Notes: generated from the sequence alone by a model not told the origin. A DNA stretch of 15,083 nt from Candidatus Methylomirabilales bacterium (GCA_046758505.1 JBHIAH010000062.1:1-15083); one strand, 5' to 3'. Positions 1,060-15,083 are shown, numbered from the stretch's first letter. Numbers and translations are program-made.

Positions 1060-1088
1060 TTGACAGGCCTAGAGCGGGGAGGTATGGT
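1060..1088 (+). promoter_or_regulatory. Sigma70-type promoter of the regulator-oxidoreductase operon
   Basis: TTGACA (1060-1065), a 17-bp spacer, then TATGGT (1083-1088), with an AT-rich stretch upstream. Confidence 0.75.
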
Positions 1089-1095
1089 CTGACCA
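1085..1095. promoter_or_regulatory. FadR-subfamily (LldR/GlcC/PdhR-type) operator TGGTCTGACCA
   Basis: The palindrome TGGTC-T-GACCA overlaps the -10 box directly upstream of a FadR-type gene. A further half-site CAGACCAGT lies at 1105-1113. Confidence 0.8.
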
Positions 1096-1131: not shown

Positions 1132-1872
1132 ATGGACCTCAAAGAGGTGAAGAAAACAAGAGTTTACCAGGATATCGTCGCCCAGGTCAAGGACCTGATC
1201 GCCGATGGAAAATTGCGGCCGGGGGATCAGCTCCCCTCTGAGCGGGAGCTCTCGGAGATGTTCAAGGTGAGCCGCGCCTCGGTTCGGGAGGCGATTCGTG
1301 CCCTGGAGTCCTTGGGATTCATCGAGATCAGGCAGGGGGAGGGGACGTACATCGCCTCGAGCGTCGAGACGCTCCTCGCCTCTGTCACCTCCACGCTCCT
1401 GCAGGAGGCGGATCTTCTCATGCAGGTCTTCGAGGCGAGAAAGATCCTGGAACCCGCCATCGCTGCCCTGGCAGCAGAACGGGCGACCGCCGAGGAGGTC
1501 GCCGAACTCGAGGAAATCCTGAAGGAACAGGCCCAGGAGATCGCCCAGGCTGAGACGGGGGTTGAGGCCGACACGCGCTTTCACTCCGCGCTCGCCGAAG
1601 CCGCCAAGAACGAGGTCCTCCTCCGGCTGAACGAGGCCATTGTTGACCATCTCCGGGAGACCCGAGAGCGCTCCCTGCACACCGAGGGGCGACCCCCCCG
1701 GTCCCTGGCCGGCCATCGGGAGATCCTGGGGGCCATCCGGGACAAAGACCCGGCGAACGCACGGGAGGCGATGCTCATCCATCTTGAGACCATCGAGCAC
1801 AATGTCCTGAAATCGCCGGCGCCACAGCGGAGACAGAACGCAGGCGACGGCGCCGGCAGCGCGACGGGATAA
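1132..1872 (+). CDS. GntR family, FadR subfamily transcriptional regulator (wHTH + FCD domain)
   Basis: wHTH region LRPGDQLPSERELSEMFKVSRASVREAIRALE..G.IEIRQGEGTY. FCD motifs EARKILE, DTRFH, HREILGAI and AM..HL. Confidence 0.95.
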   Translation: MDLKEVKKTRVYQDIVAQVKDLIADGKLRPGDQLPSERELSEMFKVSRASVREAIRALESLGFIEIRQGEGTYIASSVETLLASVTSTLLQEADLLMQVFEARKILEPAIAALAAERATAEEVAELEEILKEQAQEIAQAETGVEADTRFHSALAEAAKNEVLLRLNEAIVDHLRETRERSLHTEGRPPRSLAGHREILGAIRDKDPANAREAMLIHLETIEHNVLKSPAPQRRQNAGDGAGSATG

Positions 1873-1898
1873 CTCTCTTTCCAGAAGGAGGAAGCCGC

Positions 1899-3056
1899 AT
1901 GCATGGTTCGGTTGAAGTCGTTTACCGCGGGATCTTCCAGAAGACCCTGGGACAACGGATCACGCGTGGAGTCGTTCTCGCCGCCCGGAAGGAGGGCAAG
2001 GTCGGGATCTCCTTCGGGCGATACGGCGATTCCCCGGAACGGAACGGCATCCCGGCCAAAAGCTTTGCCGTGGTGGCGGACAATGAAGAGGAGCTGCAGG
2101 CCTATCTCGCCCGCTACGAACCCTCGGACAACGACATCACCGTCGCGGTCGACGATACGCTGTGCAAGGGGGTGGAATCCTGGGCCTGGTACGGGCTCCA
2201 GCCGATCAATAAGCTGACCCGGGCGGGCGGGACGGTCTTGACCACCTCCACGCAGTCTCCGGACGAGCTGCTCAAGGACTGCCACCGCAGGGAGACCGAG
2301 TGGAATCTCGCCGTATTGAAGGGGACTGCCAGCTTCTCCGGGCTCTGGGTCTATAAGGACGATCACACCGACGTCCGGGTCCTGGGGGCCATTGCCAAGC
2401 TTGCCCCCCACGTGGTCACAATCGAATCGGTCGAGGCAGCGATTCGGGACGAGTGGAAAGACGACCTGAAGGTCACCTCCGCCCGCAAGGCCTACGAGCG
2501 GGTCGAGGCCCGAAAAGTCCGACCCGATGAAGGGAATCCGGAGCACCCGTACGAGTTCCAGCTTCCCAAGTGGTGGGAGATGAAGGAAGCGGTGAGCATT
2601 CCGGGGATCCCGGTCAAGCAGGACGTGGAGGGTTGGGACGGGGGATACCGGCCGGGCCGCAATCCCACCTTCAAGAAGTTCGCCACACGGACCATGCGAC
2701 CGGTCGTCGATTTCGAGATCTGCACCAAGTGCACCCTCTGCTGGCTCCAGTGCCCCGACTCCTGCTTTGACGTCACCCCGACCGGCCACTACGACGCCAA
2801 TATGGAGGCCTGCTGCGGCTGTGGTGTCTGTGAGGCGGTCTGTCCGGTAACCAACTGCATCACCATGGTCAACGAGTCCGCCTTCGAGGACAATGCCAGC
2901 CAGTTCGCGATGTACGAAAAGGACAAGGGGGTGTATGACACCTGGCTCAAGGGCAAGATCCACGACAAGGTGGTGACAGACCGACACCACGGATTCCAGG
3001 TCCGGGGCAAATACGAAGAGGAGATCCGGGAGATCATCCAGGAGGTGACAAAATGA
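1899..3056 (+). CDS. Oxalate oxidoreductase-like 2-oxoacid:ferredoxin oxidoreductase, fused gamma-delta subunit (domain III + 2x[4Fe-4S])
   Basis: RBS AAGGAGG. N-terminal POR-gamma-like domain (AARKEGK...YGDSPER). Ferredoxin motifs CTKCTLCWLQCP and CCGCGVCEAVCP preceded by RTMRPVVD. ATGA overlap with the alpha gene. Confidence 0.88.
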   Translation: MHGSVEVVYRGIFQKTLGQRITRGVVLAARKEGKVGISFGRYGDSPERNGIPAKSFAVVADNEEELQAYLARYEPSDNDITVAVDDTLCKGVESWAWYGLQPINKLTRAGGTVLTTSTQSPDELLKDCHRRETEWNLAVLKGTASFSGLWVYKDDHTDVRVLGAIAKLAPHVVTIESVEAAIRDEWKDDLKVTSARKAYERVEARKVRPDEGNPEHPYEFQLPKWWEMKEAVSIPGIPVKQDVEGWDGGYRPGRNPTFKKFATRTMRPVVDFEICTKCTLCWLQCPDSCFDVTPTGHYDANMEACCGCGVCEAVCPVTNCITMVNESAFEDNASQFAMYEKDKGVYDTWLKGKIHDKVVTDRHHGFQVRGKYEEEIREIIQEVTK

Positions 3057-4276
3057 GCGTAGCAACCAAAGCGGCGCCCGCCGCTGATCAGGAGATGCTG
3101 ATCAGCGGATGTGCGGCAATCGCCCAGGCCCTCCGCCTGGCGGACCTCGACGTCGTGACGGCCTATCCGATTCGGCCCTACGACACCGTGATGCAGGCCG
3201 TGGCAAAGCTGATCTCCAACGGCGAGCTGGACGCCGAGTACATCGTTGCCTCCAGCGAGCACGATCAGTTTGAGATCGTGAAGCACGCCTCCGCAGTCGG
3301 CGCCCGCGTCTTCTGCGGGTCGAGTGGGGTCGGATGGATGTACGCCATGGAGGCCCTCGCGGTCACCCCGGCGCTCCGGCTCCCGATGCTCGCCCTGGTT
3401 GGAAACCGTGCGCTGGACGATCCGGGCGCCTTCGGCTGCGAACACAACGATGCGATGTGTGTCCGAGACCTGGGGTGGATGCTCACCTGGGTCGATACGG
3501 CCCAGGAGGCCCTCGACACGGCGTTGATCGCCTATCGGGTGGCGGAGGATAAGCGAGTCTTCCTTCCCTGCGCCATCGGGGCGGACGGGGCGTTTCTCAC
3601 GCACTCGGAGGCGTTGGTCCAGGTCCCCAGCAAGGCACAGGTGGACCAGTTCCTGCCCAAGTACGATCGGGGGGACAAGCTCCTGCACCCCGATAATCCG
3701 ATCACCGTCGCCCCGCAGGTCAATGAAGACTGGGTGATGGAGATTCGCAAGCAGAACGACGAAGCGATGCGCCGGGCCCGGGGGGTGATTCAGGAGGCCT
3801 TCCGGGACTTCCACAAGATCTTCGGCCGGCAGGGGGGGAACCCCTTTGTGGAATCGTACATGGCCGAGGACGCCGATGTGATCCTCTTCGGCCAAGGGAC
3901 CCTCTCCTTGCCGGTAAAGGTGGGTGTCCGAAAGCTCCGGGAGCAGGGTCACAAGGTCGGGTTCGTACGCCTGCGCTGGCTGCGGCCTTTCCCCACCCCG
4001 GACGTTCAGGAGACGCTTGGGCGGGCGAAAGCCGTCGGGGTGATCGATCGCGATTACTCCTTCGGCGCACCCAACCACGGCGCAGTGCTGTACAACGAGG
4101 TGCGGTCTGCCCTGTACGACCTCCCGAAGCGGCCGCACGTGATGAGCTTCATCTGCGGCCTGGGCGGCCGCGAAGTCACCTTGGACAGCGTGACGGAGAT
4201 GAGCGAGATCCTGCTGAAGATTGCGAAGACCGGAAAAGTCGAGCAACCCAACTACTGGATTGGGGTGAGGGGGTAG
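3053..4276 (+). CDS. Oxalate oxidoreductase-like 2-oxoacid:ferredoxin oxidoreductase alpha subunit
   Basis: SGC..IA.A, YPIRPY (OOR-type Arg instead of PFOR YPITP), SEH with the TPP-activating Glu, GSSGVG, NR, RPFP and GLGGRE. Confidence 0.92.
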   Translation: MSVATKAAPAADQEMLISGCAAIAQALRLADLDVVTAYPIRPYDTVMQAVAKLISNGELDAEYIVASSEHDQFEIVKHASAVGARVFCGSSGVGWMYAMEALAVTPALRLPMLALVGNRALDDPGAFGCEHNDAMCVRDLGWMLTWVDTAQEALDTALIAYRVAEDKRVFLPCAIGADGAFLTHSEALVQVPSKAQVDQFLPKYDRGDKLLHPDNPITVAPQVNEDWVMEIRKQNDEAMRRARGVIQEAFRDFHKIFGRQGGNPFVESYMAEDADVILFGQGTLSLPVKVGVRKLREQGHKVGFVRLRWLRPFPTPDVQETLGRAKAVGVIDRDYSFGAPNHGAVLYNEVRSALYDLPKRPHVMSFICGLGGREVTLDSVTEMSEILLKIAKTGKVEQPNYWIGVRG

Positions 4277-4281
4277 CAACC

Positions 4282-5343
4282 ATGGCAAAGGAGTTGACCG
4301 TACTGCCAACCCAGACCCTTGAAGCCTTCAAGGGGGTCAAGAAGATTACCATCGAGGAGTACTTCACCTCGGGACACCGGACCTGTCAGGGCTGTGAGTC
4401 GGCCCTGGTGATGAAGCTCATGGCCAAGGCGGCCGGGCCCCGGACCGTCGTCCTGGGCTCCACCGGCTGCATGTACGTGGCCAACACCACGTACTACTCC
4501 ACGTCCTGGGTGGTCCCCTGGATGCACACCCAGCTCGGGGCGTCCGGGTCGGCTGCCGTCGGCACGGCGGCCGGGCTCAAGGTTCTCATGCGCAAGAACC
4601 GGATCAAGCAAGAACCGATCAACGTCATCGCCTTCTGCGGAGACGGGGGGGGTGCCGACATGGGGCTCAGCTCGATCTCGGCCGCCTTGACCTACCCCGA
4701 GTACAACTTTCTGATCCTGATGTACGATAACGAGTCGTACGCCAACACCGACATTCAGCTCTCCAGCATGACGCCGTATGGGGCCAACACGACCTTTTCG
4801 CCTCCAGGAAAGGCCCGACGGATCCTCCACAAGCGGTGGAAGAAGAACGTCGCCGGAATGCTGGCGGCCGGGCACCCCGAGTGTCGGTATGTCGCCACCG
4901 TGGACGCCTCGTACGCGCTCGAGATGATGAACCGGCTGCGGAAGGCCCTGACCATCGGCGGGCCGACATTCATCCACTCGCTGGACCCCTGCCCCAAAGG
5001 CTGGGACTACGACCCAATCCAGTCCCATGAACTCGGGGAGCTGGCCGTCGAGACGGGGGTCTGGCCCCTCTTCGAGGTCGAGGATGGAGTACTCAAGTTC
5101 TACGGTAAATCGAAGGGCATTGCTCAGGGGCGAAAGCGGAAGCCGGTCCGGGAGTATCTCTTGAAGCAGGGCCGATTCGCCCACTTCACCGACGAGGACA
5201 TCGAGTATTTCCAGAAGAAGGTGGACCTCATGTGGGAGCGGTGGCTCGTTCCCGGCGCCATCTGCGTCGAGATGGGTGACGATATCCGGAAGCACCTCGC
5301 CCGCGCGGAGCAAGAGGTCACCGCGGCCGAAGCGAAACAGTAA
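4282..5343 (+). CDS. Oxalate oxidoreductase-like 2-oxoacid:ferredoxin oxidoreductase beta subunit (TPP and proximal [4Fe-4S] binding)
   Basis: GHRTCQGC, TGCMYVANT, the GDGG...YDNESYANT TPP/Mg motif, TPYGANTTF and PCPKGW. Confidence 0.92.
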   Translation: MAKELTVLPTQTLEAFKGVKKITIEEYFTSGHRTCQGCESALVMKLMAKAAGPRTVVLGSTGCMYVANTTYYSTSWVVPWMHTQLGASGSAAVGTAAGLKVLMRKNRIKQEPINVIAFCGDGGGADMGLSSISAALTYPEYNFLILMYDNESYANTDIQLSSMTPYGANTTFSPPGKARRILHKRWKKNVAGMLAAGHPECRYVATVDASYALEMMNRLRKALTIGGPTFIHSLDPCPKGWDYDPIQSHELGELAVETGVWPLFEVEDGVLKFYGKSKGIAQGRKRKPVREYLLKQGRFAHFTDEDIEYFQKKVDLMWERWLVPGAICVEMGDDIRKHLARAEQEVTAAEAKQ

Positions 5344-5352
5344 GGGTCCTCC

Positions 5353-5385
5353 GGCGGAGCCACGCCTTCCCGGTGTGGCTCCGCC
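5353..5385 (+). terminator. Strong hairpin after the oxidoreductase operon (terminator or mRNA stabiliser)
   Basis: GGCGGAGCCACGCC-TTCCC-GGTGTGGCTCCGCC forms a 14-bp stem with one G.U pair, 9 nt after the stop codon. It lacks a good U-tract. Confidence 0.6.
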
Positions 5386-5475
5386 CCCTTCACCATTGTA
5401 TACTGTATCCCTCTTCGAAACGGGACGGGAACCCGCCACGACCGATGAGCATGCTCCGATTTCGCTGTGCGAAAA

Positions 5476-5517
5476 TGTCAAGAACCCCTTGACAAAACGG
5501 TGTTTCCTATGTAGAAG
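5476..5517 (+). promoter_or_regulatory. Putative sigma70 promoter for tctCBA, with the -35 inside an inverted repeat
   Basis: TTGACA (5489-5494), 17 bp, then TAGAAG (5512-5517). Palindrome TGTCAAG-AACCC-CTTGACA at 5476-5494. Confidence 0.45.
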
Positions 5518-5690
5518 CAACATGCCGCGTCCCGCAGGCTTCGTACCCCATGCCAGGGAATAAAGGGGGTGGAAATCGGGTTTGCTGAAGCGATACCTTG
5601 TCCCCGGTCGTGTGTTGGCGAAAACCTCATCGCGTTTCCACTCAGTGGCAGGCGTTCTCTTACCCGCAACTTTATGAAAGGAGGGGCAGC

Positions 5691-6695
5691 ATGTCTAAGA
5701 AGGGTCGGTGGACATCCCTGGTCGTCGTCGGATTGCTCCTGATCTTCTTGGGGCCGGGGACTGTCCTGCTCACGGACACCGCCGCCGAGGCGGCCTGGCA
5801 GCCCAAGAAGCCGATTACGTTCGTCATCATGGCCGGCAAAGGGGGCGGTGCCGATCGGATCGCTCGGCTCATGCAGAAGATCGTGCAAAAGCATAAATGG
5901 TCCCCGCAACCCCTCATCCCGGTCAACAAGCCGGGTGGCGCAGGCGCCGAGGCGCTCCGGTACCTCAAGGACCATAAAGGTGACCCGTACGTTATCCTGG
6001 TCACGCTCAACAGCTTCTTCACCACCCCCCTGCGCGCCAATTTGGGCCTGAGCTACCGGGATTTTACGCCGATCGCCCGGATGGCCATGGACACGTTTAT
6101 CCTCTGGGTCAATTCAAAGTCACCGATCAAGAACGTGGATCAGTACGTCAAGGCGGTGAAGGCGGCGGGCGGTAAGTGGAAGATGGGCGGGACCGGCAAG
6201 GGGCAGGAAGATTCGCTCGTCACCGGCCTGCTCGAGGATGCCTACGGCATCAAAACCACCTATGTCCCCTTCAAGGGTGGCGGCAAGGTTGCGAAAGAGC
6301 TGATCGGGGGACACGTCGATTCCACCGTCAACAACCCGTCAGAGCAGATCTCCTGGTACGAGGCCGGGCGCTCTCGGCCACTGGCCGCCTTCACCCCAAA
6401 TCGGCTGCCCCAGTTTCCGGACGTGCCGACCTTCCGAGAGCTGGGCAAGGACCTCGTCTACTACATGCAGCGGAGCATTAACGCGCCTGGCGGAATCCCG
6501 GCCGAGGCGCGGGAGTGGTATGCGAACCTGTTCACCAAGCTCTCGAAGTCCGAGGAGTGGCAGACCTACTGCAAGAAGAAGGCGCTCCACTGCACGGGGA
6601 AGCTGGGGTTTTTGACCGGCGACAAACTGGGTAAGTTCTTCGCCTCGGAAGAGGCCAAGCACAAGAGGCTCCTCAAGGCGATGGGAGAGATCTAG
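5691..6695 (+). CDS. tctC: Tripartite tricarboxylate transporter substrate-binding protein (TctC/Bug family)
   Basis: RBS AAAGGAGG before ATG 5691. Signal peptide ending AEA-A. Motifs WQPKKPITFVI.AG.GGGAD..AR, VNKPGGAG, DFTPIA, YVPFKGGG, GGHVD and PDVPTFRELG. Confidence 0.93.
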   Translation: MSKKGRWTSLVVVGLLLIFLGPGTVLLTDTAAEAAWQPKKPITFVIMAGKGGGADRIARLMQKIVQKHKWSPQPLIPVNKPGGAGAEALRYLKDHKGDPYVILVTLNSFFTTPLRANLGLSYRDFTPIARMAMDTFILWVNSKSPIKNVDQYVKAVKAAGGKWKMGGTGKGQEDSLVTGLLEDAYGIKTTYVPFKGGGKVAKELIGGHVDSTVNNPSEQISWYEAGRSRPLAAFTPNRLPQFPDVPTFRELGKDLVYYMQRSINAPGGIPAEAREWYANLFTKLSKSEEWQTYCKKKALHCTGKLGFLTGDKLGKFFASEEAKHKRLLKAMGEI

Positions 6696-6698
6696 CCG

Positions 6699-7184
6699 AT
6701 GCGCCGCGCGGAAGTCACCTGTGCCCTGGGGTTGGTGGCGTTAGCCGTCATCTTTGCCTGGTACGCGCGGGAGCTGCCGATCGGCTGGGTGCCTGGGGCA
6801 GGCCCGGGGGGTGGCTTCTTTCCCTTCTGGCTCTCGGTCATCATGGGTGCGGTTGCGGTTGCGGTGGGGGTGCAGGGCTTCATGCGGGGCTCTGCACCCC
6901 GCCACGCCGCCAAGCGCTTCTTCGTGGAAGGGGGTCTCCGGCAGGTCTTCCTGGTTGCTATCCCCGGCCTCGTAATGGTCGCCCTGATCGACATCATCAG
7001 CACGTACGTGGCGGCCATCATCTTCCTGTTGTTTTACACGCGCTGCATCGGCAAACACCCCTGGCGGACCTCGTTCCTGGTAGCCATCGTGGTCCCCGTG
7101 GGGATCTTCTTGCTCTTTGAGAAGTTCTTGCTCATTCCACTGCCAAAGGGCTACCTCGACAAACTGTATTATATCTTTTACTAG
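6699..7184 (+). CDS. tctB: Tripartite tricarboxylate transporter small membrane subunit
   Basis: Several TM segments, GPGGGFFPFW and a C-terminal FEKFLLIPLPKG. Lies between tctC and tctA. Confidence 0.9.
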   Translation: MRRAEVTCALGLVALAVIFAWYARELPIGWVPGAGPGGGFFPFWLSVIMGAVAVAVGVQGFMRGSAPRHAAKRFFVEGGLRQVFLVAIPGLVMVALIDIISTYVAAIIFLLFYTRCIGKHPWRTSFLVAIVVPVGIFLLFEKFLLIPLPKGYLDKLYYIFY

Positions 7185-7287
7185 TGCCGTTCCAACGTGA
7201 TAAGCCGAATGTGAGCGACCTGCCTTGTTGCAAGCGTGGTGAACGAGTACAGCAAGAAAGTTAGCACAAATCCTTGGAACGGCACTA
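7182..7287. mobile_element. Non-autonomous MITE (about 102 bp plus TA duplication), probably derived from the IS630 family
   Basis: Perfect 15-bp inverted repeat CTAGTGCCGTTCCAA (7181-7195) / TTGGAACGGCACTAG (7274-7288). The interior is visibly more AT-rich than the flanking genes. The TA-flanked ...CACTAG ends are typical of IS630 elements. Confidence 0.65.
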
Positions 7288-7335
7288 GCAGAGGGGAAGA
7301 GGACGCCAAGCACCGACACACGAGGACGGGCCACA

Positions 7336-7365
7336 GAGAGGGGCGGGCCGACGCCGCCCCTTTTT
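7336..7365 (+). terminator. Intrinsic terminator-like hairpin between tctB and tctA
   Basis: GAGAGGGGCGG-GCCGACG-CCGCCCC followed by TTTTT. Confidence 0.55.
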
Positions 7366-7378
7366 CGTGAGAGGTAGT

Positions 7379-8920
7379 ATGGAACTTTTCGGCAATCTCC
7401 TGTACGGCTTCAGCATCGCGCTGACCCCCCTGAACTTCATCATGGCGATCCTCGGCGTCGTCCTGGGAACCGCAATCGGCGCCATGCCCGGTCTCGGGTC
7501 CGTCAACGGCGTCGCGATCCTTATCCCGATCACCTTCGCCGTCCCCCCAACCGCGGGGATCATCTTCCTGTCCGCCATCTACTATGGCGCCATGTACGGG
7601 GGCGCCATCAGCTCGATCACCCTGAACATCCCGGGCGCCTCCACGGCCGTCGCAACCACCTTTGACGGCTACCCCATGGCCAAGAAGGGGCGCGCCGCCC
7701 AGGCGCTGGTGGGGGCCGCGGTCAGTTCCTTCATCGGTGGTACCGTTTCGATCATCCTCTTTACCCTCTTCGCGCCCCCGCTCGCCGAGTTTGCCCTGAA
7801 GTTCGGCCCCGCAGAGACCTTCACGCTCATGCTCCTCGCCTACGCCACGTTCGCCGGTCTGGGGGGGGGTAACCCGCTCAAGACGATCGTCGCCACCCTG
7901 ATGGGCCTCATCCTGAGCACCGTCGGCCTGGACATCGTGAGCGGCCGCCCCCGCATGATCTTTGGGGACATCGCCGGCTTCTACCACGGAATCAATTTCC
8001 TGGTCCTCGCCATCGGGCTGTACGGGATCGGCGAGATCCTCTTCACGGCAGAGGAAAGACTGGTCGCCGGCGAGCGATTGCAGGCAAAGGTCCGGCTGCG
8101 GGATATCCTTTCCACCATCAAAGAGATGGCCCGGTACAAGCGGGCCTTCGGAATCGGCTCGCTCCTCGGGTTCTTCGTCGGCATGCTCCCGGCGGCGGGA
8201 GCCACGCCCGCCTCATTCATGAGTTACAGTGTGGTAAAGCGCTTTTCCAAACACCCCGAAGCGTTCGGGACCGGAACGATCGAAGGGGTCATTGCGCCCG
8301 AGACTGCCAACAACGCGGCGAGCACCGGGGCCATGCTCCCGATGCTCACCCTCGGCGTCCCCGGTTCGCCAACGACCGCCGTCATGCTGGGCGCCCTGGT
8401 GGTGTGGGGCCTGCTTCCGGGTCCGATGCTCTTCATTGAGCACCGCGAGTTCGTGTGGGGACTGATCGCCAGTCTCTATATCGCCAACGTCCTCGCGGTG
8501 TTGATCAACCTGTTCGCCATTCCGCTCTTCACCCTGATCCTGTGGCTCCCCTTTACCATCCTGGCACCGCTGATCATCGTCGTCTGCGCGGTGGGGGGAT
8601 ACGCGCCGACCTATAGCGTCTTCGACATGTGGCTCGCCTTCATCTTCGGGCTGGCCGGCTATGTCTTCCGAAAGCTCGACTACCCGCTCGCCCCCATGGT
8701 CCTCGCCCTGGTCCTCGGCCCCGGTACCGAGGTCTCCCTGCGCCAGAGCCTCATCATGTCCCACGGCTCCATCAGCATCTTCTTCGGCTTCGAAGGGGGG
8801 GTGTTCACCCATCCGATCGCCGCGGCCCTCATGTGGACCAGCGTGACTCTGTACGCCCTCCCCGTCGTCGGAGCGTTGATCCGCCTCTTCCGGCGGCGCG
8901 TCGAACTGGCAAAGGCCTAG
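7379..8920 (+). CDS. tctA: Tripartite tricarboxylate transporter large membrane subunit
   Basis: TctA motifs GAMPGLG, YYGAMYGGAISSI..NIPG, DGYPMAKKGRA, APETANNAA, LTLGVPGS and PGPMLF. Highly hydrophobic. GAGAGG precedes ATG 7379. Confidence 0.95.
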   Translation: MELFGNLLYGFSIALTPLNFIMAILGVVLGTAIGAMPGLGSVNGVAILIPITFAVPPTAGIIFLSAIYYGAMYGGAISSITLNIPGASTAVATTFDGYPMAKKGRAAQALVGAAVSSFIGGTVSIILFTLFAPPLAEFALKFGPAETFTLMLLAYATFAGLGGGNPLKTIVATLMGLILSTVGLDIVSGRPRMIFGDIAGFYHGINFLVLAIGLYGIGEILFTAEERLVAGERLQAKVRLRDILSTIKEMARYKRAFGIGSLLGFFVGMLPAAGATPASFMSYSVVKRFSKHPEAFGTGTIEGVIAPETANNAASTGAMLPMLTLGVPGSPTTAVMLGALVVWGLLPGPMLFIEHREFVWGLIASLYIANVLAVLINLFAIPLFTLILWLPFTILAPLIIVVCAVGGYAPTYSVFDMWLAFIFGLAGYVFRKLDYPLAPMVLALVLGPGTEVSLRQSLIMSHGSISIFFGFEGGVFTHPIAAALMWTSVTLYALPVVGALIRLFRRRVELAKA

Positions 8921-8971
8921 CCGGATGCTTTCCGCACCGAGAGGGGTGCGGGCACACGTGTGAGGAGTTTC

Positions 8972-9787
8972 ATGCCAATCGTCGCCATGACAAAAGAGAT
9001 GTGGAGCCTCGGCACCTCCATCGGGCAGGAGGTCGCCCGGCAGCTCGGCTACGAGTTCATCCGGCAAGACATCATCCGGGAGGCGGCGCGGGAGTACCGC
9101 ACGCTGGAAGAAAAGCTCGTCGAGACCCTGGAAGAGAAACCGGGATTTTTCGAGATGCTGAGCGAGACGGCCCGGCGGCACCACATCTTCGTGGCCGCCG
9201 AGGTGTATGAATTTGCGCTGCGGGAGCGGGTGGTGATCATGGGACGGTGGTCCACCCAACTCCTCAGGGGGGTGGATCACGCGGTCCGGATCCGGGTCTG
9301 CGCCCCGATCGACATCCGGGTTCGCCGCCTGATGGAGCGCCTTGGTGTCGGGGAGGCAGAGGCTCGCCGACTGATCCGCCGTTCCGACGAAGGGGTAGCC
9401 AGCCGGATGCACCAGTTCTTCGACGTAGAGTGGGCCGATCCGCTCCTGTATGACCTCAGCATCAATACCGGCAAGGTCTCTGTCACCACGGCGGCGGCCC
9501 AGGTGAATGTGCTGCTCGAGGCCCCCGAGTTTCAGTCAACCGAAGCCTCGGTGAAACAGCTGCAGAACCTCGCCCTGGCCGCAAAGGTCAAAGCCACGCT
9601 GAAGTCCCACCGGGAAACAGCCCGTCTCGATGTGGATGCAGTCGGAAGCGATGGCGAGGTGACCCTTCGAGGAACCGTTCCGGAAATCCTCGACCGCGAT
9701 GAAGCCGAGCGGATCGCCCTGGCAACTCCCGGAGTGCGTGCCCTGAAGAACGAGCTGATCGCGGTCGAAGAACACCGGCGCCTGTGA
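8972..9787 (+). CDS. Cytidylate kinase-like family protein with C-terminal BON domain
   Basis: RBS GAGGAG before ATG 8972. N-terminal motifs IG..VA.QLGY, VIMGR, RIRVCAP...RV.R and DPLLYDLSINT. C-terminal BON-like region GEVTLRGTV.....AERIA...PGV..LKNEL. Confidence 0.85.
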   Translation: MPIVAMTKEMWSLGTSIGQEVARQLGYEFIRQDIIREAAREYRTLEEKLVETLEEKPGFFEMLSETARRHHIFVAAEVYEFALRERVVIMGRWSTQLLRGVDHAVRIRVCAPIDIRVRRLMERLGVGEAEARRLIRRSDEGVASRMHQFFDVEWADPLLYDLSINTGKVSVTTAAAQVNVLLEAPEFQSTEASVKQLQNLALAAKVKATLKSHRETARLDVDAVGSDGEVTLRGTVPEILDRDEAERIALATPGVRALKNELIAVEEHRRL

Positions 9788-9851
9788 GGTCCTCCAAATT
9801 TGGCCAGTGCGCTGCAACCCCGAGGGCTCTGGCCAGACGGGTGCAGCCGAC

Positions 9852-11387
9852 TTATCGCGCTCGCTCAAGCCCCTTGAGATGCTGGCGAACCCACTCCGCG
9901 TCTTCCCCATCCGGGGCCAGCTCAAGGTACCGGCGGTACGCGCGCACGGCCGCCTGCACTTGCCCCCGCCCCTCGTAGATCTCTCCCAGAGCGCGCTGCG
10001 GCTCGGCCAGCTTCGGCCCGTGCGTGATCGCTTTCCGATACGCCGCCTCGGCCGCTGACAGGTCCCCCATCCCGACCAGGACCCGCCCCCACCATGTATA
10101 GGCGATCGCCAGATCGGGGGGAGGGGGAATGTCGATGTCGAGTCCGCCTCCCGTGTCCGGCCCACCCTCGGTAACCTCCCGTGGAGCTTTCTCCAGCAGG
10201 TGGACGCTTCTTTGGAGCGCCGATGCGGCCTCGGGGTACCTCCCCACGGCCGCGTACGCCCGACCGAGGCGATAGTATACTTCGGGATGTGGCGTCACGA
10301 ATTTCGCCGCGCGCGCGTAAGCCGCCACCGCCCGGGGATAGTCGCCCCGGCGCCGCGCGATCTCGCCGAGAAAAAAGTGCGCCCGTCCCTGCTCCGGCTC
10401 AATGCGAATCACCCGCCGAAATGACTTCGCGGCAGCCTCATATTGTTGGAGCCTGAGGCGGACCACGCCGAGCAGGTATGCGATGATCGAACTCTCTGGA
10501 TCGAACTCGGCAGCCCGCGCATAGGCCGCGCTGGCGCGCTGAAGCTCTCCCCGTTCATGATGAATCAAACCGAGGTTCCGCCACGCATCGGCGAACCCCG
10601 GCTGGATCTCGACCGCCGACTGTAACGCGGCGGCAGCCCCATCCAGATCTCCCCGCGCCTTGAGGAGGTTCCCCAGGTAGAACCGGCTCTGGGCATCCCG
10701 CGGATCCAGCTCCGCCGCGCTCCGGTACGCCTCGATGGCCAGGGGAAACTCCCCCCGCCGGATATGAAGCGAGGCAAGCCGTCGATGGGCCAGGGGGAGT
10801 TGGGGATTCACCTGGAGGGCTTTCTCGTAGGACGCGACCGCCAGGTCTAACTTCCCCTGGAGGGTATAGAGATACCCGATAAACAAATAGGGCTTCGCTC
10901 TTTCGGGACCAAGATCGCTGGCTGCCTGAAAGGCTGCAAGGGCCTCCTCGATCCTGCGCTCTTTTGCCAATAGATATGCCCGCCCGTAATGCCCCCAGTA
11001 GTAGCGCGGGTCCAACGCGACGGCCCGATCAAACTCGGCAAGTTGGGAAGCCGGGTCCTCCAGGAGCCGACCGTACAGATAGTGAAATACCGGGCTGTCG
11101 GGCCGCCGGTCCAGCCATGCGCGATACTCTTGGCGAAGTTGCTCCTGCTCCCCACGGGCGGCCAACAGAATGGCCCGCCGCCGATGGGCATCGGTATACT
11201 CCGGTCGCAATCGGATCGCCTCCTGGTAGCTTCGCAGGGCCTTCTCGACCTGTCCCGCCTCCTCCTGCCCCCGGCCACGCTGAAACGCCTGCGCTGCGCG
11301 CACCCGCCTATCCGGCGCATCGCACGCCACCAGGGCCACCATGAGGCTAAGCACCGCGACTATTCGCCAGGGGGCCGTGTCTTGCAC
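9852..11387 (-). CDS. Tetratricopeptide-repeat lipoprotein
   Basis: GTG start with GGAG upstream. Hydrophobic signal with lipobox LVA-C. More than 10 TPR units, for example A...YEKALQVNP and AWRNLGLI...GE...A..AY.RA...DP. Confidence 0.85.
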   Translation of the reverse strand: MQDTAPWRIVAVLSLMVALVACDAPDRRVRAAQAFQRGRGQEEAGQVEKALRSYQEAIRLRPEYTDAHRRRAILLAARGEQEQLRQEYRAWLDRRPDSPVFHYLYGRLLEDPASQLAEFDRAVALDPRYYWGHYGRAYLLAKERRIEEALAAFQAASDLGPERAKPYLFIGYLYTLQGKLDLAVASYEKALQVNPQLPLAHRRLASLHIRRGEFPLAIEAYRSAAELDPRDAQSRFYLGNLLKARGDLDGAAAALQSAVEIQPGFADAWRNLGLIHHERGELQRASAAYARAAEFDPESSIIAYLLGVVRLRLQQYEAAAKSFRRVIRIEPEQGRAHFFLGEIARRRGDYPRAVAAYARAAKFVTPHPEVYYRLGRAYAAVGRYPEAASALQRSVHLLEKAPREVTEGGPDTGGGLDIDIPPPPDLAIAYTWWGRVLVGMGDLSAAEAAYRKAITHGPKLAEPQRALGEIYEGRGQVQAAVRAYRRYLELAPDGEDAEWVRQHLKGLERAR

Positions 11388-11398
11388 AAACTTGTCTC

Positions 11399-11598
11399 CA
11401 GCGGTCGGCGGTCAGCGATCATCTTGAAGCTGTCAGCAGCCGTCAGCAAGGATGAAATCTCAGCATTCAGCAATCAGCAGTCAGCTTGGAAATCCCGAAG
11501 CTGATAGCTGACAGCTAACCGCTGATGGCTTTAAGATTGCTCACTGCTGCCAGCTGCCTGCTTGCCCTTTATTGTTGACTGCGGACAGCTGACGGCTG
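11399..11598. repeat. Nested inverted arrays of TCAGCNN / NNGCTGA heptamer repeats
   Basis: Inner arms TCAGCAT-TCAGCAA-TCAGCAG-TCAGCTT (11460-11487) and AAGCTGA-TAGCTGA-CAGCTAA-CCGCTGA (11498-11525). Outer arms CAGCGGT-CGGCGGT-CAGCGAT (11399-11419) and GTTGACT-GCGGACA-GCTGACG-GCTG (11574-11598). Confidence 0.8.
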
Positions 11599-13260
11599 TC
11601 AGTATCCCAACGCCAGGCCGTCGCCCCGCGGATCGGCCGCTCCCTGCCGGACCCCGGTCTCGGGATCGATGAGGATCGCCTGCGCATGCCCCATGAGATC
11701 GTCCCAGGCCTCCACGACCCGGACCGGCTGCCCCCGACGTCTGAGCGCCTCCACCACGGACGGCGGGATCCGCGCCTCCAAGAGGAGATCGGTGCTCGTC
11801 ATCCCCCAGGTGCGGCCGTACAGCCAGCGCGGCGCTTCAACCGCTTCCTGGAGACCAAACCCAAAATCAACGATGCGGGTCACCAGGGCCGATTGCGTCT
11901 GGGGCTGGCCCTCGCCGCCCATGGTGCCGTACACCAGGAAGAGGCGATCGTCCTTGAGGAGGATTGCGGGGATCAGGGTGTGAAACGTTCGCTTCCGGGG
12001 CTGAAGACAGTTGACATGGGTCGGATCGAGCGAGAAAAAAGTCCCCCGATTCTGGAGGAGGACCCCCGTGTCCCCCGCCACGATCCCGGACCCGAAGTCG
12101 AAATAGATGCTCTGTAACATCGACACACCGTTCCCCGCGGCATCGACCGTGCCGATATAGACCGTATCCCCTTTCACCAGCCCGGGCTCGTAGCGTGCCA
12201 CCGCCCTGGCCATGTCGATCCGTCGGGCCCGATCCTGCGTGTACCGCGGGGAGAGGAGGCGATCCAGGGGAATCCGGCTACAGGCGGGATCGGTCACCCA
12301 CTGATCGCGGTCGGCGAAGGCCAGCTTCGTGGCCTCCACTTGCAGATGATAGTACTCCGTGGTCCCCTCTCCCACCCGTTCCAAATCGAAGTGGCTCAGA
12401 ATGCCCAGGATCATCAGGGCGGCCACCCCCTGGGTATTCGGCGGAAATCCATGCACCCCGTATCCGCGGTAATTCACCCGAATCGGCTCAACCCAATCGG
12501 AATGGTGGTTGTAGAAGTCCCGTTCCGTCAGGACGCCACCGTGCCTATCGAGGTACCGGACGATCCGCCGCGTGATGTCCCCCTCATAAAAGAAACGACC
12601 GCCCCCGTACGCAATGGTCTTGAGGGTGCGGGCGAGATCCGGCTGCTTCATGACCTCGCCCGGCCGATACGGTTGCCCATCGGGCTTGAGAAACGTGCGC
12701 CGGAACCCTTCCCATCGCTGGAGTCCCCGCAGGGGGTCGGCGGTCTCCCCGATGTCTCGGGCGGTCCACACCGCCTGGCTCGGGGTGACCGGGTATCCGG
12801 CCTCGGCGTATCCCACGGCCTCCTCAAAGAGGGAGGACCACAAAACGCGGGTCCCCAAGCTCCAGCGCCCGTACTCGTGGGCGGTCGCCCATCCATCCAC
12901 CGCCCCGGGCACCGTATTGGCCGCCAGGAACCCTCGGGGAGGGATGGCGTCCAAATTGCCCATCCGTTGGTACAGGTCGATCGTACATCGCTCTCCCGAT
13001 CGCCCCGACCCGTTCAGGGCGCGGACGGTTCGTGTCTTGGCATCGTAAATCAACCAGAAGTTGTCCCCGCCAAGACTGCACATGTGCGGATACACGACAG
13101 AGCAGACGGCTGCAGCCGCGATGGCGGCATCAACGGCGTTTCCCCCGGCCTGGAGGACCCGGAGGCCGGCGGCCGAGGCCAGGTAATGGGGGGTCGCCAC
13201 CATCCCCCGGGTGGCCAGGACGGTCGGTCGATGCGCAGTGGCACCTGCCGGAGGTTTCAT
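11599..13260 (-). CDS. Gamma-glutamyltransferase-family Ntn-hydrolase, HpxW (oxamate amidohydrolase)/YwrD-like
   Basis: GMVATPHYLAS..G...L..GGNAVDAAIA, VVYPHM.SLGGD, autoproteolysis site GD/TVY, QSIYFDFGSG, LQNRG..FSLDP, FHTLIP, MGGEGQPQTQ, PRWLYGRTWG and ADPRGDG. Start is either 13260 (GGAGG upstream) or 13278. Confidence 0.9.
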   Translation of the reverse strand: MKPPAGATAHRPTVLATRGMVATPHYLASAAGLRVLQAGGNAVDAAIAAAAVCSVVYPHMCSLGGDNFWLIYDAKTRTVRALNGSGRSGERCTIDLYQRMGNLDAIPPRGFLAANTVPGAVDGWATAHEYGRWSLGTRVLWSSLFEEAVGYAEAGYPVTPSQAVWTARDIGETADPLRGLQRWEGFRRTFLKPDGQPYRPGEVMKQPDLARTLKTIAYGGGRFFYEGDITRRIVRYLDRHGGVLTERDFYNHHSDWVEPIRVNYRGYGVHGFPPNTQGVAALMILGILSHFDLERVGEGTTEYYHLQVEATKLAFADRDQWVTDPACSRIPLDRLLSPRYTQDRARRIDMARAVARYEPGLVKGDTVYIGTVDAAGNGVSMLQSIYFDFGSGIVAGDTGVLLQNRGTFFSLDPTHVNCLQPRKRTFHTLIPAILLKDDRLFLVYGTMGGEGQPQTQSALVTRIVDFGFGLQEAVEAPRWLYGRTWGMTSTDLLLEARIPPSVVEALRRRGQPVRVVEAWDDLMGHAQAILIDPETGVRQGAADPRGDGLALGY

Positions 13261-13280
13261 CTCCCGTTCCCCCTCCATGA

Positions 13281-14606
13281 CTAATACCACCCCACCAGGC
13301 GGGGGAGCCAGAGGGCGATCTCGGGGAACATCAAGAGAATAGCCAAGCCGACGAGCTGCAACGCCACAAAGGGGACGATCCCTCGATAAATATGGCTGGT
13401 CCTCACTTCGGGAGGCGCGACACCTTTCAGGAAAAAGAGTGACCATCCGAAGGGAGGCGTCAGGAAGGAGGTCTGCAGGTTCATGCAGATCACGATGGAA
13501 AACCAGAGGAGGTCAATGCCCATCTTGTCCAGGACCGGTGTGATGATCGGCACCACGATGTAGGTAATCTCAATCCATTCCAGAAAGAACCCGAGGAAGA
13601 ACAGGAGGGCCATGATAAAGGCGATCACGCCCCACTTCCCACCCGGCATGCCGCCGAGGACGTCGTGGACCAGGATGTCCCCGTCCAGCCCGCGAAAGGC
13701 CAGGCCAAAGACCCGGGCCCCCACCACGATGATCATCACCAGACAGGTCAGCCGGGCAGTACGCCGATTGACCTCGCGAATTCGCTGCATCGTCAACCGG
13801 CCGTTCACGGCCGTGATCAGGATAGCCCCGAGGGCGCCCATAGATGCCGCCTCGGTCGGGGCGGCGATGCCGAAGATGATCGATCCGAGCACGGCCACGA
13901 TCAAAGCGCTCACAGGAAAAAGAACCTTCACGGCCCGGATGAACAGGTCTCGCCTGCTGATGCTTGCCCGCTCCTCCAAGGGGATCGCCGGAGCTATCTT
14001 CGGGTAGAGAAAGGATCCGATTGTAATCGCAACGACAAAAATGCCGGCCAGCATAAAGCCGGGAATAAAGGCGGCCACGAAGATGGCGCCCACCGACAGG
14101 CCGAGAATATCGGCCAACACGATGAGGACGAGGCTGGGTGGAATGATCTGGCCGAGGGTTCCCGAGGCACAGATGGTTCCCGTCGCCAGCTCCGGCAGAT
14201 ACCTCCGGCGAAGCATGCTGGGAAGCGATAAGAGGCCCATCGTCACCACCGTGGCCCCCACAATCCCCGTCGACGCCCCCAGCAAAGCTCCGACGACCAC
14301 GACCGAAATTGCGAGCCCCCCCCGCACCTCACCGAAAAGGAGTCCCATCGTCTCGAGCAGGTCCTCGGCCACGCCTGACACCTCGAGCATCACTCCCATG
14401 TAGACGAACAAGGGAATAGCCAGGAGAGTGTAATTGGCCATCACACCGTACACTCGGAGCGGCAACAGGTTGAACAGATCGAAACCGAATCCAAGCATGC
14501 CGAAGATCAAACCAACTGCCCCCAGGGTAAAGGCCACAGGATAGCCCAGCATCAACATGCCGAGGAGCCCCACGACCATCAGGACGGCCAGCGTTTCAAG
14601 CGGCAT
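13281..14606 (-). CDS. dctM: TRAP transporter large permease (FcbT3/TakP-associated type)
   Basis: GYPVAFTLG, LLAIPLF..MG..LE.SG.AEDL, GIVGATVV.MG..SLP.ML, GTLGQIIPPS, PTEAA and NLQTSFLTPPFG..LF.LKGVAP. The ATG at 14606 overlaps the end of dctQ. Confidence 0.95.
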   Translation of the reverse strand: MPLETLAVLMVVGLLGMLMLGYPVAFTLGAVGLIFGMLGFGFDLFNLLPLRVYGVMANYTLLAIPLFVYMGVMLEVSGVAEDLLETMGLLFGEVRGGLAISVVVVGALLGASTGIVGATVVTMGLLSLPSMLRRRYLPELATGTICASGTLGQIIPPSLVLIVLADILGLSVGAIFVAAFIPGFMLAGIFVVAITIGSFLYPKIAPAIPLEERASISRRDLFIRAVKVLFPVSALIVAVLGSIIFGIAAPTEAASMGALGAILITAVNGRLTMQRIREVNRRTARLTCLVMIIVVGARVFGLAFRGLDGDILVHDVLGGMPGGKWGVIAFIMALLFFLGFFLEWIEITYIVVPIITPVLDKMGIDLLWFSIVICMNLQTSFLTPPFGWSLFFLKGVAPPEVRTSHIYRGIVPFVALQLVGLAILLMFPEIALWLPRLVGWY

Positions 14607-15083
14607 GGGTCTTCTCCTCTCCTTCTGAAACTTCCTCGCCCTCGAGGCCGAGCAACCGACAGAGGCTATGGAGCGCCATCGAGACGCCCTGCAGTCCGAG
14701 GAGCGCAAACCCGATGGGCATTATGGCCTTCAGAATGTAGCGGGCCGGAAGTCCCCCGGGATCAGGCGACCCCTCCCCTGCCGCCCACGAGGCACCGATA
14801 AAGCTCCACGAGGTCCAGATGATGATGATACAGACCGGGATGAGGAAGAGGAGGGAACCGACAAAATCAACGTACGCCCTAGTCCTCGCCGAGAACCGCG
14901 AATAGAGGATATCCACCCGGACGTGTTCGTCATACACCAGCGTATAGGCCGCGGTGAGTAAAAAGAGCGGGCCGAAGAGATGCCACTCGAGCTCCTGCAT
15001 GGCAACCGAGCCCCTGTGGAACAGGTACCGGACGATCACATTCCACGCCACCACGAGGACCAACACCAATGCGATCCATGAGG
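14596..15083 (-). CDS. dctQ: TRAP transporter small permease (FcbT2 type), 5'-truncated by the window edge
   Basis: The frame is open to the window end. Motifs V..RY.F, QELEWHL, HVRVDILY, GEGSPDPGGLP, and G..LLGLQG.S. Confidence 0.92.
   Translation of the reverse strand, partial: SWIALVLVLVVAWNVIVRYLFHRGSVAMQELEWHLFGPLFLLTAAYTLVYDEHVRVDILYSRFSARTRAYVDFVGSLLFLIPVCIIIIWTSWSFIGASWAAGEGSPDPGGLPARYILKAIMPIGFALLGLQGVSMALHSLCRLLGLEGEEVSEGEEKTHAA

Follow-up and report, generated by a model that had tools for sequence, protein, structure and literature searches.

A Methylomirabilales locus that may couple oxamate uptake and hydrolysis to coenzyme A-independent oxalate oxidation

Gene organization of the two convergent operons

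The window examined in this study is the entire contig C62 (15,083 nt) of Candidatus Methylomirabilales bacterium (GCA_046758505.1, JBHIAH010000062.1; genome G000, 2.99 Mb and 96.8% complete), whose nearest named relatives are metagenome-assembled genomes of the Methylomirabilales/NC10. Two operons converge in it: a plus-strand operon for an enzyme resembling the oxalate oxidoreductase (OOR) of Moorella thermoacetica and for a tripartite tricarboxylate transporter (TTT, TctCBA), and a minus-strand operon for a tripartite ATP-independent periplasmic (TRAP) transporter and an amidase resembling HpxW of Klebsiella. The two operons may act in series, the first oxidizing oxalate without coenzyme A (CoA) and the second feeding it by uptake and hydrolysis of oxamate; we give this reading a probability of roughly 45%.

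The left operon is preceded by a sigma-70-type promoter (TTGACA-17-TATGGT, 1060..1088, plus strand, 10/12 match), of which the TTGACA box is invariant in nine aligned upstream regions. A FadR-type palindromic operator, TGGTCTGACCA (1085..1095), lies over the −10 box, is followed by AGACC half-sites and is conserved in eight aligned relatives. The plus-strand genes begin with a GntR/FadR regulator (GntR and FCD domains, 1132..1872); a GntR match was found in 71 of the 80 neighborhoods of the alpha gene examined, which were the 80 best among 527. Next come the three OOR-like subunits: a gamma-delta fusion of 385 aa comprising domain III and a ferredoxin part with two [4Fe-4S] clusters (1899..3056); alpha, 407 aa, with YPIRP at residues 38-42 and RALDDPGAF at 119-127 (3053..4276); and beta, 353 aa, with the thiamine pyrophosphate (TPP) motif GDGG..NE, the proximal-cluster cysteine motifs and NTDIQ (4282..5343). 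TctC, the TTT binding protein of an OOR-linked clade and putative oxalate receptor (5691..6695; domain match and tree), TctB (6699..7184) and TctA (7379..8920), the last two assigned by domain match, are followed by a cytidylate-kinase-like protein with a BON domain (cytK-BON, domain match, 8972..9787). The right block runs on the minus strand in the order gntR2-dctPQM-amidase, with the amidase, a GRTWG-type N-terminal nucleophile (Ntn) hydrolase of the GGT family, at 11599..13260 (alternative start 13278), the large permease DctM at 13281..14606 and the small permease DctQ at 14596..15083 (both by domain match), the latter running past the window end. The start of dctQ is on contig C94, which shares 55 nt at its own start with the end of the window and also carries dctP (C94:264-1346, minus strand) and a second GntR gene, gntR2 (C94:1735-2433, minus strand). 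The genes named in the preliminary description are all present, intact and convergent as it had stated. Two genes that it left unnamed separate the blocks, cytK-BON and a gene for a tetratricopeptide repeat (TPR) protein (9852..11387, minus strand).

The motif TGGTCWGACCA occurs once in the genome, as the left-operon operator, and it was not found upstream of dctP or gntR2, which points to two regulons. The left and right blocks are thus predicted to be two separately regulated operons with different operators; the preliminary description was right to regard them as separate transcription units. Each has its own GntR regulator. A shared regulon was rejected as TGGTCTGACCA is confined to the left block. 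A terminator scan returned nothing above chance (15 found against 10.5 +/- 3.0 expected). Elsewhere in G000 (C1:45100-48700), a second GntR-headed operon for a 2-oxoacid:ferredoxin oxidoreductase (OFOR; alpha identity 31%) has the related palindrome TGGTCATACCA upstream and adjoins a TRAP transporter, a CoA-transferase and an enoyl-CoA hydratase.

Other genes of the window were also considered. The TPR gene was rejected as a part of the system, being found in one of the 80 alpha loci, absent in G003 and replaced by an aminotransferase gene in G012, and a DUF1080 gene (93-773) was rejected with none of 80. cytK-BON lies in seven of the 80 alpha loci and often trails tctA in OOR loci of both enzyme clades described below; a database search with it returned only its own Pfam families. 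The spacer between the amidase and TPR genes (11400-11600) contains imperfect CAGC(A/T)(A/G)TCAG-like repeats with the potential to fold into hairpins. Neighboring loci were gene-called by a codon-score script that recovered 13 of 13 window genes, with approximate starts.

The OOR-like oxidoreductase and its link to oxalate

Moorella OOR (5c4i) is the best solved relative of the oxidoreductase (E values of 2.6e-109, 3.6e-85 and 6.7e-19 for alpha, beta and gamma-delta) and is also nearest among the NCBIfam models for all three subunits. The TPP motif, the proximal-cluster cysteines and the two ferredoxin-type clusters are all present. Active-site and pocket assignments, here and for the amidase and DctP, were made by sequence alignment: Arg41 of alpha, within the YPIRP motif kept in 108/108 alphas of the clade, corresponds to Moorella Arg31, and the conserved Arg119 to Arg109. 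The accessible text of PMC5020499 describes the roles of Arg31 and Arg109 and a bait-and-switch mechanism that Asp116 drives together with Arg31. In the window clade, Asp123 replaces Pro113 in 108/108 alphas, and NTDIQ replaces NTGIQ (Asp for Moorella Gly) in 100/100 betas read. The clade is placed as a sister of Moorella OOR and not as OOR proper; a second clade with about 45% identity to the window type passes the OOR cut-offs, keeps Asp116 and is called true OOR below.

The glycine loop GxGGQG of CoA-using OFORs binds CoA. Domain III is the CoA site of these enzymes, according to the accessible part of PMC13768988. In the window gamma-delta subunit, YRGIFQKTL stands in place of this loop, and a YRG(I/V)(F/Y)QK-type start was found in all tallied members, versus GEGGQG in the PorC-type subunit of G000. 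The absence of the loop argues for the CoA independence that had been proposed.

The gene neighborhoods point to oxalate as the substrate. An OxlT-cluster gene was found in 38 of the 80 alpha loci, in 35 of them directly after beta, and one cluster member that was checked clears TIGR04259 (479.6 > 335 bits); tctC was found in 15, and the two never occurred together. The remaining loci were too short downstream (16) or had neither gene (11). Acidobacterial alpha loci carry genes for a PanE-like reductase (15 of 80), an acyl-CoA ligase (14), a class-V, glyoxylate-aminotransferase-like aminotransferase (13) and malate synthase (7), which we take to serve oxalyl-CoA synthesis and reduction and glyoxylate assimilation. 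Of 20 further loci, taken from Methylomirabilota genomes for the length of their contigs, 18 have tctCBA behind beta, one has OxlT and one has neither, the single OxlT locus belonging to G047, from the same order as the window. In the true-OOR loci (best 80 of 418), OxlT was found 52 times, tct 15 times and the two together twice. In a FastTree phylogeny with midpoint root, TctC proteins from the loci of both enzyme clades are intermingled in a single group, and the two other TctC proteins of G000 fall outside it. As OxlT and TTT replace each other among members of one order and in either enzyme clade, oxalate import is the simplest role for the TTT, and TctCBA would probably carry oxalate in the place of OxlT. 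That the window-type OFOR itself oxidizes oxalate can be proposed with rather more confidence on the grounds of its neighbors, its arginines and its relationship to OOR.

The alpha gene is common in the phylum. Calling OOR-type alpha at E <= 1e-90 gave 144 of 200 Methylomirabilota genomes (104/127 in family f9 and 13/16 in f10; a few with the true-OOR type only), and Oxc was above its cut-off in one of the 200. In G000, none of Oxc, Frc and OxlT was above the curated cut-offs, in agreement with the earlier proposal of a bypass of Oxc/Frc. G000 lies outside family f7, where the 19 genomes of at least 80% completeness yielded the alpha gene once and the amidase never; the sole f7 match (G059:C117) is 71% identical, has the Rokubacterial gene order and may be a misbinned contig.

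Several further features of these loci were observed. Four genomes (G018, G026, G045 and G047) hold both window-type and true-OOR-type alpha, and two acidobacterial loci (L088, L092) hold both within one locus; the presence of both types in one genome suggests a division of labor, for instance according to the level of oxygen or substrate. An AAA ATPase, presumably of the Cdc48-type family and called by similarity to one protein of locus L218, is found in 60 of the 80 true-OOR loci and is absent from the window clade. Most Rokubacterial and several true-OOR loci have a YjbE/TerC-family membrane gene behind tctA, and in family f4 it stands behind the amidase gene; it is absent from G000 and possibly serves to handle metals (Mn/Ca) in connection with the uptake of oxalate. 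In 11 of the 80 alpha loci, the window-type OFOR has an acetamidase/formamidase-family gene as its neighbor, in five of them together with a carbon-nitrogen hydrolase gene, which may amount to a non-homologous way of feeding amides into the oxalate module.

The HpxW-like amidase and the TRAP importer

The small subunit of the amidase is nearest to 5hft_B (E 3e-57), a sequence that matches the Klebsiella gene heading the hpxW-X-Y-Z cluster and is 51.9% identical; for the large subunit, 2nlz outscores 5hft_A (213.7 vs 190.7 bits). HpxW is an oxamate amidohydrolase, as stated in the accessible text of PMC5270733. The nucleophile Thr367 and Ser385 at +18 (numbered in the 554-aa query) are shared with Klebsiella HpxW. 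We take T342 and S360 to be the equivalent residues in the latter. GG(D/E)GQPQTQ and GRTWG are shared as well; both also occur in a much wider group and hence are not diagnostic. In a 110-row tree (quick method, midpoint root, one duplicate row dropped), the amidase groups with proteins from Bacillota, cyanobacteria, Desulfovibrio and Oxalobacter, and it is assigned as a sister of HpxW rather than an orthologue. Oxalobacter can use oxamate; its protein is 60% identical to the window amidase, and two of the 120 homologues listed carry the JGI name 'oxamate amidohydrolase'. A true hpxW shares an operon with oxlT in Paraburkholderia (gntR-hpxW-oxlT, AP028202.1 632122-636125), and more distant amidase relatives adjoin lactate permeases or an OFA transporter. 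Oxamate is, by a small preference, the predicted substrate of the amidase.

True HpxW orthologues in family f5 lie near allFGH-type genes, neither of which G000 has. In families f1, f3 and f5, allFGH-like clusters occur together with a carbamate kinase, a cytosine-deaminase-like gene and an ABC importer (six loci), and in two genomes such a cluster adjoins a true hpxW orthologue. By tblastn, HpxX, HpxZ, AllF, carbamate kinase and a PuuE-like protein were not found in G000, allantoinase and urease were below cut-off, and no internal oxamate source was found there; among 41 relatives, AllG is present in six and AtzH in none. The association with purine or allantoin genes that had been anticipated was rejected for G000.

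The importer, too, gives an indication of the substrate. DctP, encoded on C94 outside the window, is of the TakP type, for which the accessible part of PMC1839085 lists Tyr100, Gln156, Arg177, Glu214, Trp215 and Glu240 as ligands. All six Na-pyruvate ligands are kept in DctP as Tyr102, Gln158, Arg179, Glu216, Trp217 and Glu242, with a constant +2 offset. The hydrophobic side-chain pocket of TakP is not kept, Ser247 standing for Val245 and Thr245 for Pro243 (mapped by offset, not structure). Position 247 is Ser/Thr in 20/20 members of the DctP clade and Leu/Phe/Met in 66/66 others, and Ser/Thr would be expected there if an amide NH2 replaced the methyl group of pyruvate. This clade of 20 (support 1.0) contains nine of the ten amidase-labelled DctP proteins among 87, and across 80 DctP-query loci the amidase adjoins six of 16 in the clade and none of 64 outside it. 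The clade partner is a true HpxW in Proteobacteria and the sister amidase here, which suggests the same or a similar substrate. The TRAP transporter very probably carries the substrate of the amidase, and the earlier assignment of a TakP-type system is borne out. A close DctP orthologue (at least 84%) was found in five of the 41 relatives, all of the genus of the window, and the accessory TRAP-amidase module was seen only in this genus. Other neighbors in the DctP clade are AtzH with an amidase, a hydantoinase with a racemase, and PuuE-like deacetylases. In the alphaproteobacterial branch, a PuuE-like polysaccharide-deacetylase, which at 126.6 bits falls short of the PuuE cut-off, is a steady neighbor in eight loci and is a candidate for a ureide enzyme not yet assigned.

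Linkage, alternative readings and relation to known systems

The linkage of the two blocks was surveyed in related genomes (G labels denote genomes and f labels families; G021 and G007 are unpublished genomes). Both blocks lie convergently on one contig within 8 kb in G000, G003, G006 and G009. In G034 they share a contig within 8 kb on one strand, in the order gntR-gamma/delta-alpha-beta-CBS-amidase-terC. Across contig breaks, linkage may be inferred in G012 and G001 (tctA-cytK facing the amidase in both) and in G005 (tct facing a paralogue). In G031 and G021, also across a contig break, the amidase gene sits 7-8 bp behind tctA and before terC, inside a tct-terC operon; the picture given by G021 is also that of G031 and G034. 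The amidases of family f4 and of G005 form a paralogous branch in the tree, so one ancestral linkage followed by duplication, not two events, may account for these arrangements. The filler genes between the blocks vary among relatives.

Several observations count against two operons acting in series. Among the relatives, the amidase gene of G008 follows an ABC operon, an amidase match is lacking in G007 and G011, which have the OFOR alpha, and an OOR-type alpha is lacking in G016, G019 and G023, which have the amidase. In 80 Rokubacteriales-side genomes (f9-f12) with both genes, no pair within 1 Mb was seen by eye; two share a contig with the genes more than 1.2 Mb apart, many of the assemblies are fragmented, and the amidases are relatives of 45-55% from another branch. 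No amidase was found in the 80 true-OOR loci or in two further sets of 20 loci each. The 80 alpha loci showed no linkage in Acidobacteria, Armatimonadota or other hosts, one unrelated 33% GGT aside; this GGT, beside the OFOR in locus L097, was not counted, as it is without GRTWG and falls among other paralogues. In family f9, the alpha gene is present in 68/79 amidase-positive and 36/48 amidase-negative genomes (86% vs 75%, by eye); genome-wide co-occurrence was rejected as support because both genes are near-core in Rokubacteriales and the f9 enrichment is explicable by completeness. No operator is common to the blocks. The three oxidoreductase subunits miss the OOR cut-offs (alpha, NF045791, 416 of 500 bits; beta, NF045792, 347 of 590; gamma-delta, NF045790, 87.5 of 230), which a true-OOR set from G022 clears (592, 594.6 and 261.7). 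Moreover, Ala126 replaces Asp116 in 108/108 window-clade alphas, and Asp116 is present in 85 of 86 true-OOR-type alphas read. With the cut-offs missed and Asp116 absent, the enzyme, although expected to function in the manner of OOR, falls outside it on both of these features. The 15-row HpxW clade (SH-aLRT 99) does not include the window amidase, the large subunit of the latter is 39.7% identical to that of Klebsiella, it differs from HpxW near conserved motifs (HE to FD, LN to LI, AG to AQ), and most of its 55-65% relatives occur in uninformative contexts. AllG, AtzH/HpxZ, HpxX, allantoinase and urease were not found in the 96.8% complete genome. The exclusion between OxlT and TTT largely tracks taxonomy, so these counts are not independent.

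Compared with the preliminary description, the oxalate substrate, the CoA independence and the TakP-type importer find support; membership of OOR and HpxW, a regulation shared by the two blocks and a wide linkage do not. The oxidoreductase belongs to an oxalate-linked OFOR clade without being OOR proper, and the amidase belongs to the HpxW family and shares its motifs without being an orthologue. Conserved linkage was found in two Methylomirabilales families, one of them co-oriented, and not elsewhere. The pairing of the two blocks is restricted to these two families of one order, and the oxalate module is widespread. The oxamate part is probably an accessory feeder on this widespread module.

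Alternative readings differ in which half of the proposed route they replace. The left operon could be an oxalate module and the TRAP-amidase operon next to it a nitrogen-scavenging system for some other small amide or N-acyl compound, the adjacency being an ancestral accident of the Methylomirabilales. The separate regulators and operators, the variable filler genes, the lack of linkage or clear co-occurrence beyond two families, the position of the amidase outside the HpxW clade and the failure to find an oxamate source in G000 all agree with such an accident, but the amidase paralogue inserted into the tct-terC operon of family f4, the pairing of the same DctP clade with true HpxW in Proteobacteria and the existence of an hpxW-oxlT operon do not, and we regard it as unlikely. 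Should the amidase prove unrelated, only the oxalate module would be left of the finding. Serial action of the two operons would be preserved if the substrate imported and hydrolyzed were oxalurate or another N-substituted oxamate, yielding oxalate and urea or an amine, with oxalate still feeding the OFOR. Ureide enzymes neighbor the DctP clade, pocket-proximal residues differ from those of HpxW, and HpxXZ and AllFGH are missing in G000, so that no other oxalurate route is available; however, the nitrogen would be lost because urease was not found, JGI names close homologues oxamate amidohydrolases, and TakP-type pockets are small. This variant seems improbable, and much the same holds for an OFOR whose substrate is a different C2 compound (glyoxylate or oxamate itself) or whose reaction runs reductively, a reading in which Asp116Ala and the beta Gly-to-Asp exchange would mark a change of substrate, not mechanism. 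The missed cut-offs, the absence of the switch Asp in 108/108 alphas and the four genomes with both clades, which suggest different roles or conditions, are consistent with it, but both arginines are kept, the OxlT, TTT, PanE and CoA-ligase neighbors are those of true OORs, and a repressor with an importer fits catabolism.

For the preferred reading, two operons acting in series, the genes, motifs, operator, neighborhoods and trees are observed, and we infer the following substrates, reaction direction, electron acceptor, induction and flux from the right module into the left. External oxamate, or a close oxalyl amide, would be bound together with a cation by DctP and imported by the TRAP permease under the control of the second FadR repressor. 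The cytoplasmic amidase would hydrolyze it by way of an acyl-enzyme on Thr, releasing NH3 and oxalate. Oxalate arising in this way or entering via TctCBA would relieve FadR repression of the left operon, and the (alpha beta gamma-delta) enzyme would oxidize it on TPP to 2 CO2 without CoA. The two low-potential electrons would leave by three [4Fe-4S] clusters to a ferredoxin-type carrier and probably reach respiration; a genome search gave three heme-copper-oxidase-family genes in G000 and no NarG above cut-off. According to the accessible part of PMC11326118, oxamate is a near-stoichiometric dead-end product of allantoin use by E. coli. In its fullest form, which is put forward tentatively, the proposal is a complete CoA-free route from oxamate to oxalate and NH3 and on to 2 CO2 plus a pair of electrons at low potential, made up of an oxamate-specific TRAP transporter, an oxalate-specific TTT, an HpxW-sister amidase and an OOR variant with a moved catalytic aspartate. 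It would let respiring NC10 bacteria live on the dead-end product that other microbes leave in breaking down purines, with an oxalate half that is near-core in Methylomirabilota and missed by oxc/frc surveys.

The counts for OOR-type alpha and Oxc (144 and 1 of 200 Methylomirabilota genomes) would imply that abundant soil and groundwater lineages oxidize oxalate by a route that the usual markers miss, oxalotrophy being surveyed by oxc, frc, oxdC and oxlT according to the accessible part of PMC13409138. Databases label window-type OFORs 'pyruvate ferredoxin oxidoreductase'. The locus offers candidates for oxalate transport by TTT, for oxamate transport by TRAP and for oxamate-use genes; oxamate use as a growth trait was reportedly described by Postgate in 1963. 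An active OOR without Asp116 would also test the bait-and-switch mechanism. Judging by the listings and abstracts of the literature searched, which covers few subscription papers, no description of the window OFOR clade, an oxalate TTT, an oxamate TRAP transporter or their combination was found, nor any report of oxalate as a TTT substrate.

Every component belongs to a known family. The window enzyme resembles Moorella OOR (EC 1.2.7.10; 5C4I/5EXD/5EXE; NF045790-92) in its three subunits (domains I-II, VI and III-V), YPIRP, Arg109, the TPP and three [4Fe-4S] motifs, the absent GxGGQG loop and the GntR and OxlT/TTT neighbors, but differs in Asp116 to Ala, Pro113 to Asp, NTGIQ to NTDIQ in beta, a gamma-delta of 385 instead of 315 aa, scores below all three cut-offs, an operon without the Cdc48-type ATPase and a host with heme-copper oxidases. 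Klebsiella HpxW (hpxWXYZ; 5HFT) and the window amidase have in common the Ntn/GGT fold, the Thr nucleophile, Ser at +18, GRTWG, the lack of a signal peptide and FHTL in place of the gamma-glutamyl-binding motif; the latter is a member of a sister clade, has a TRAP importer as operon partner and comes from a genome in which hpxX and hpxZ are missing. The six Na-pyruvate ligands are common to DctP, TakP, the 2-oxo-acid TRAP binding protein of Rhodobacter sphaeroides (2HZK/2HZL), and the relatives 4PET, 5CM6 and 7UG8, whereas Ser247 for Val245 and a clade tied to amidases and ureide genes set the window protein apart. TctCBA has the three-component architecture of TTT systems (Pfam TctA, TctB and TctC in one operon), but its TctC has only distant solved relatives (best E 1.4e-30) and belongs to a clade tied to OOR-type enzymes. 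With Oxc/Frc/OxlT oxalotrophy, finally, the locus shares oxalate as the proposed substrate, and OxlT is common to many of the related loci, whereas the route proposed here would proceed without CoA activation and without formate.

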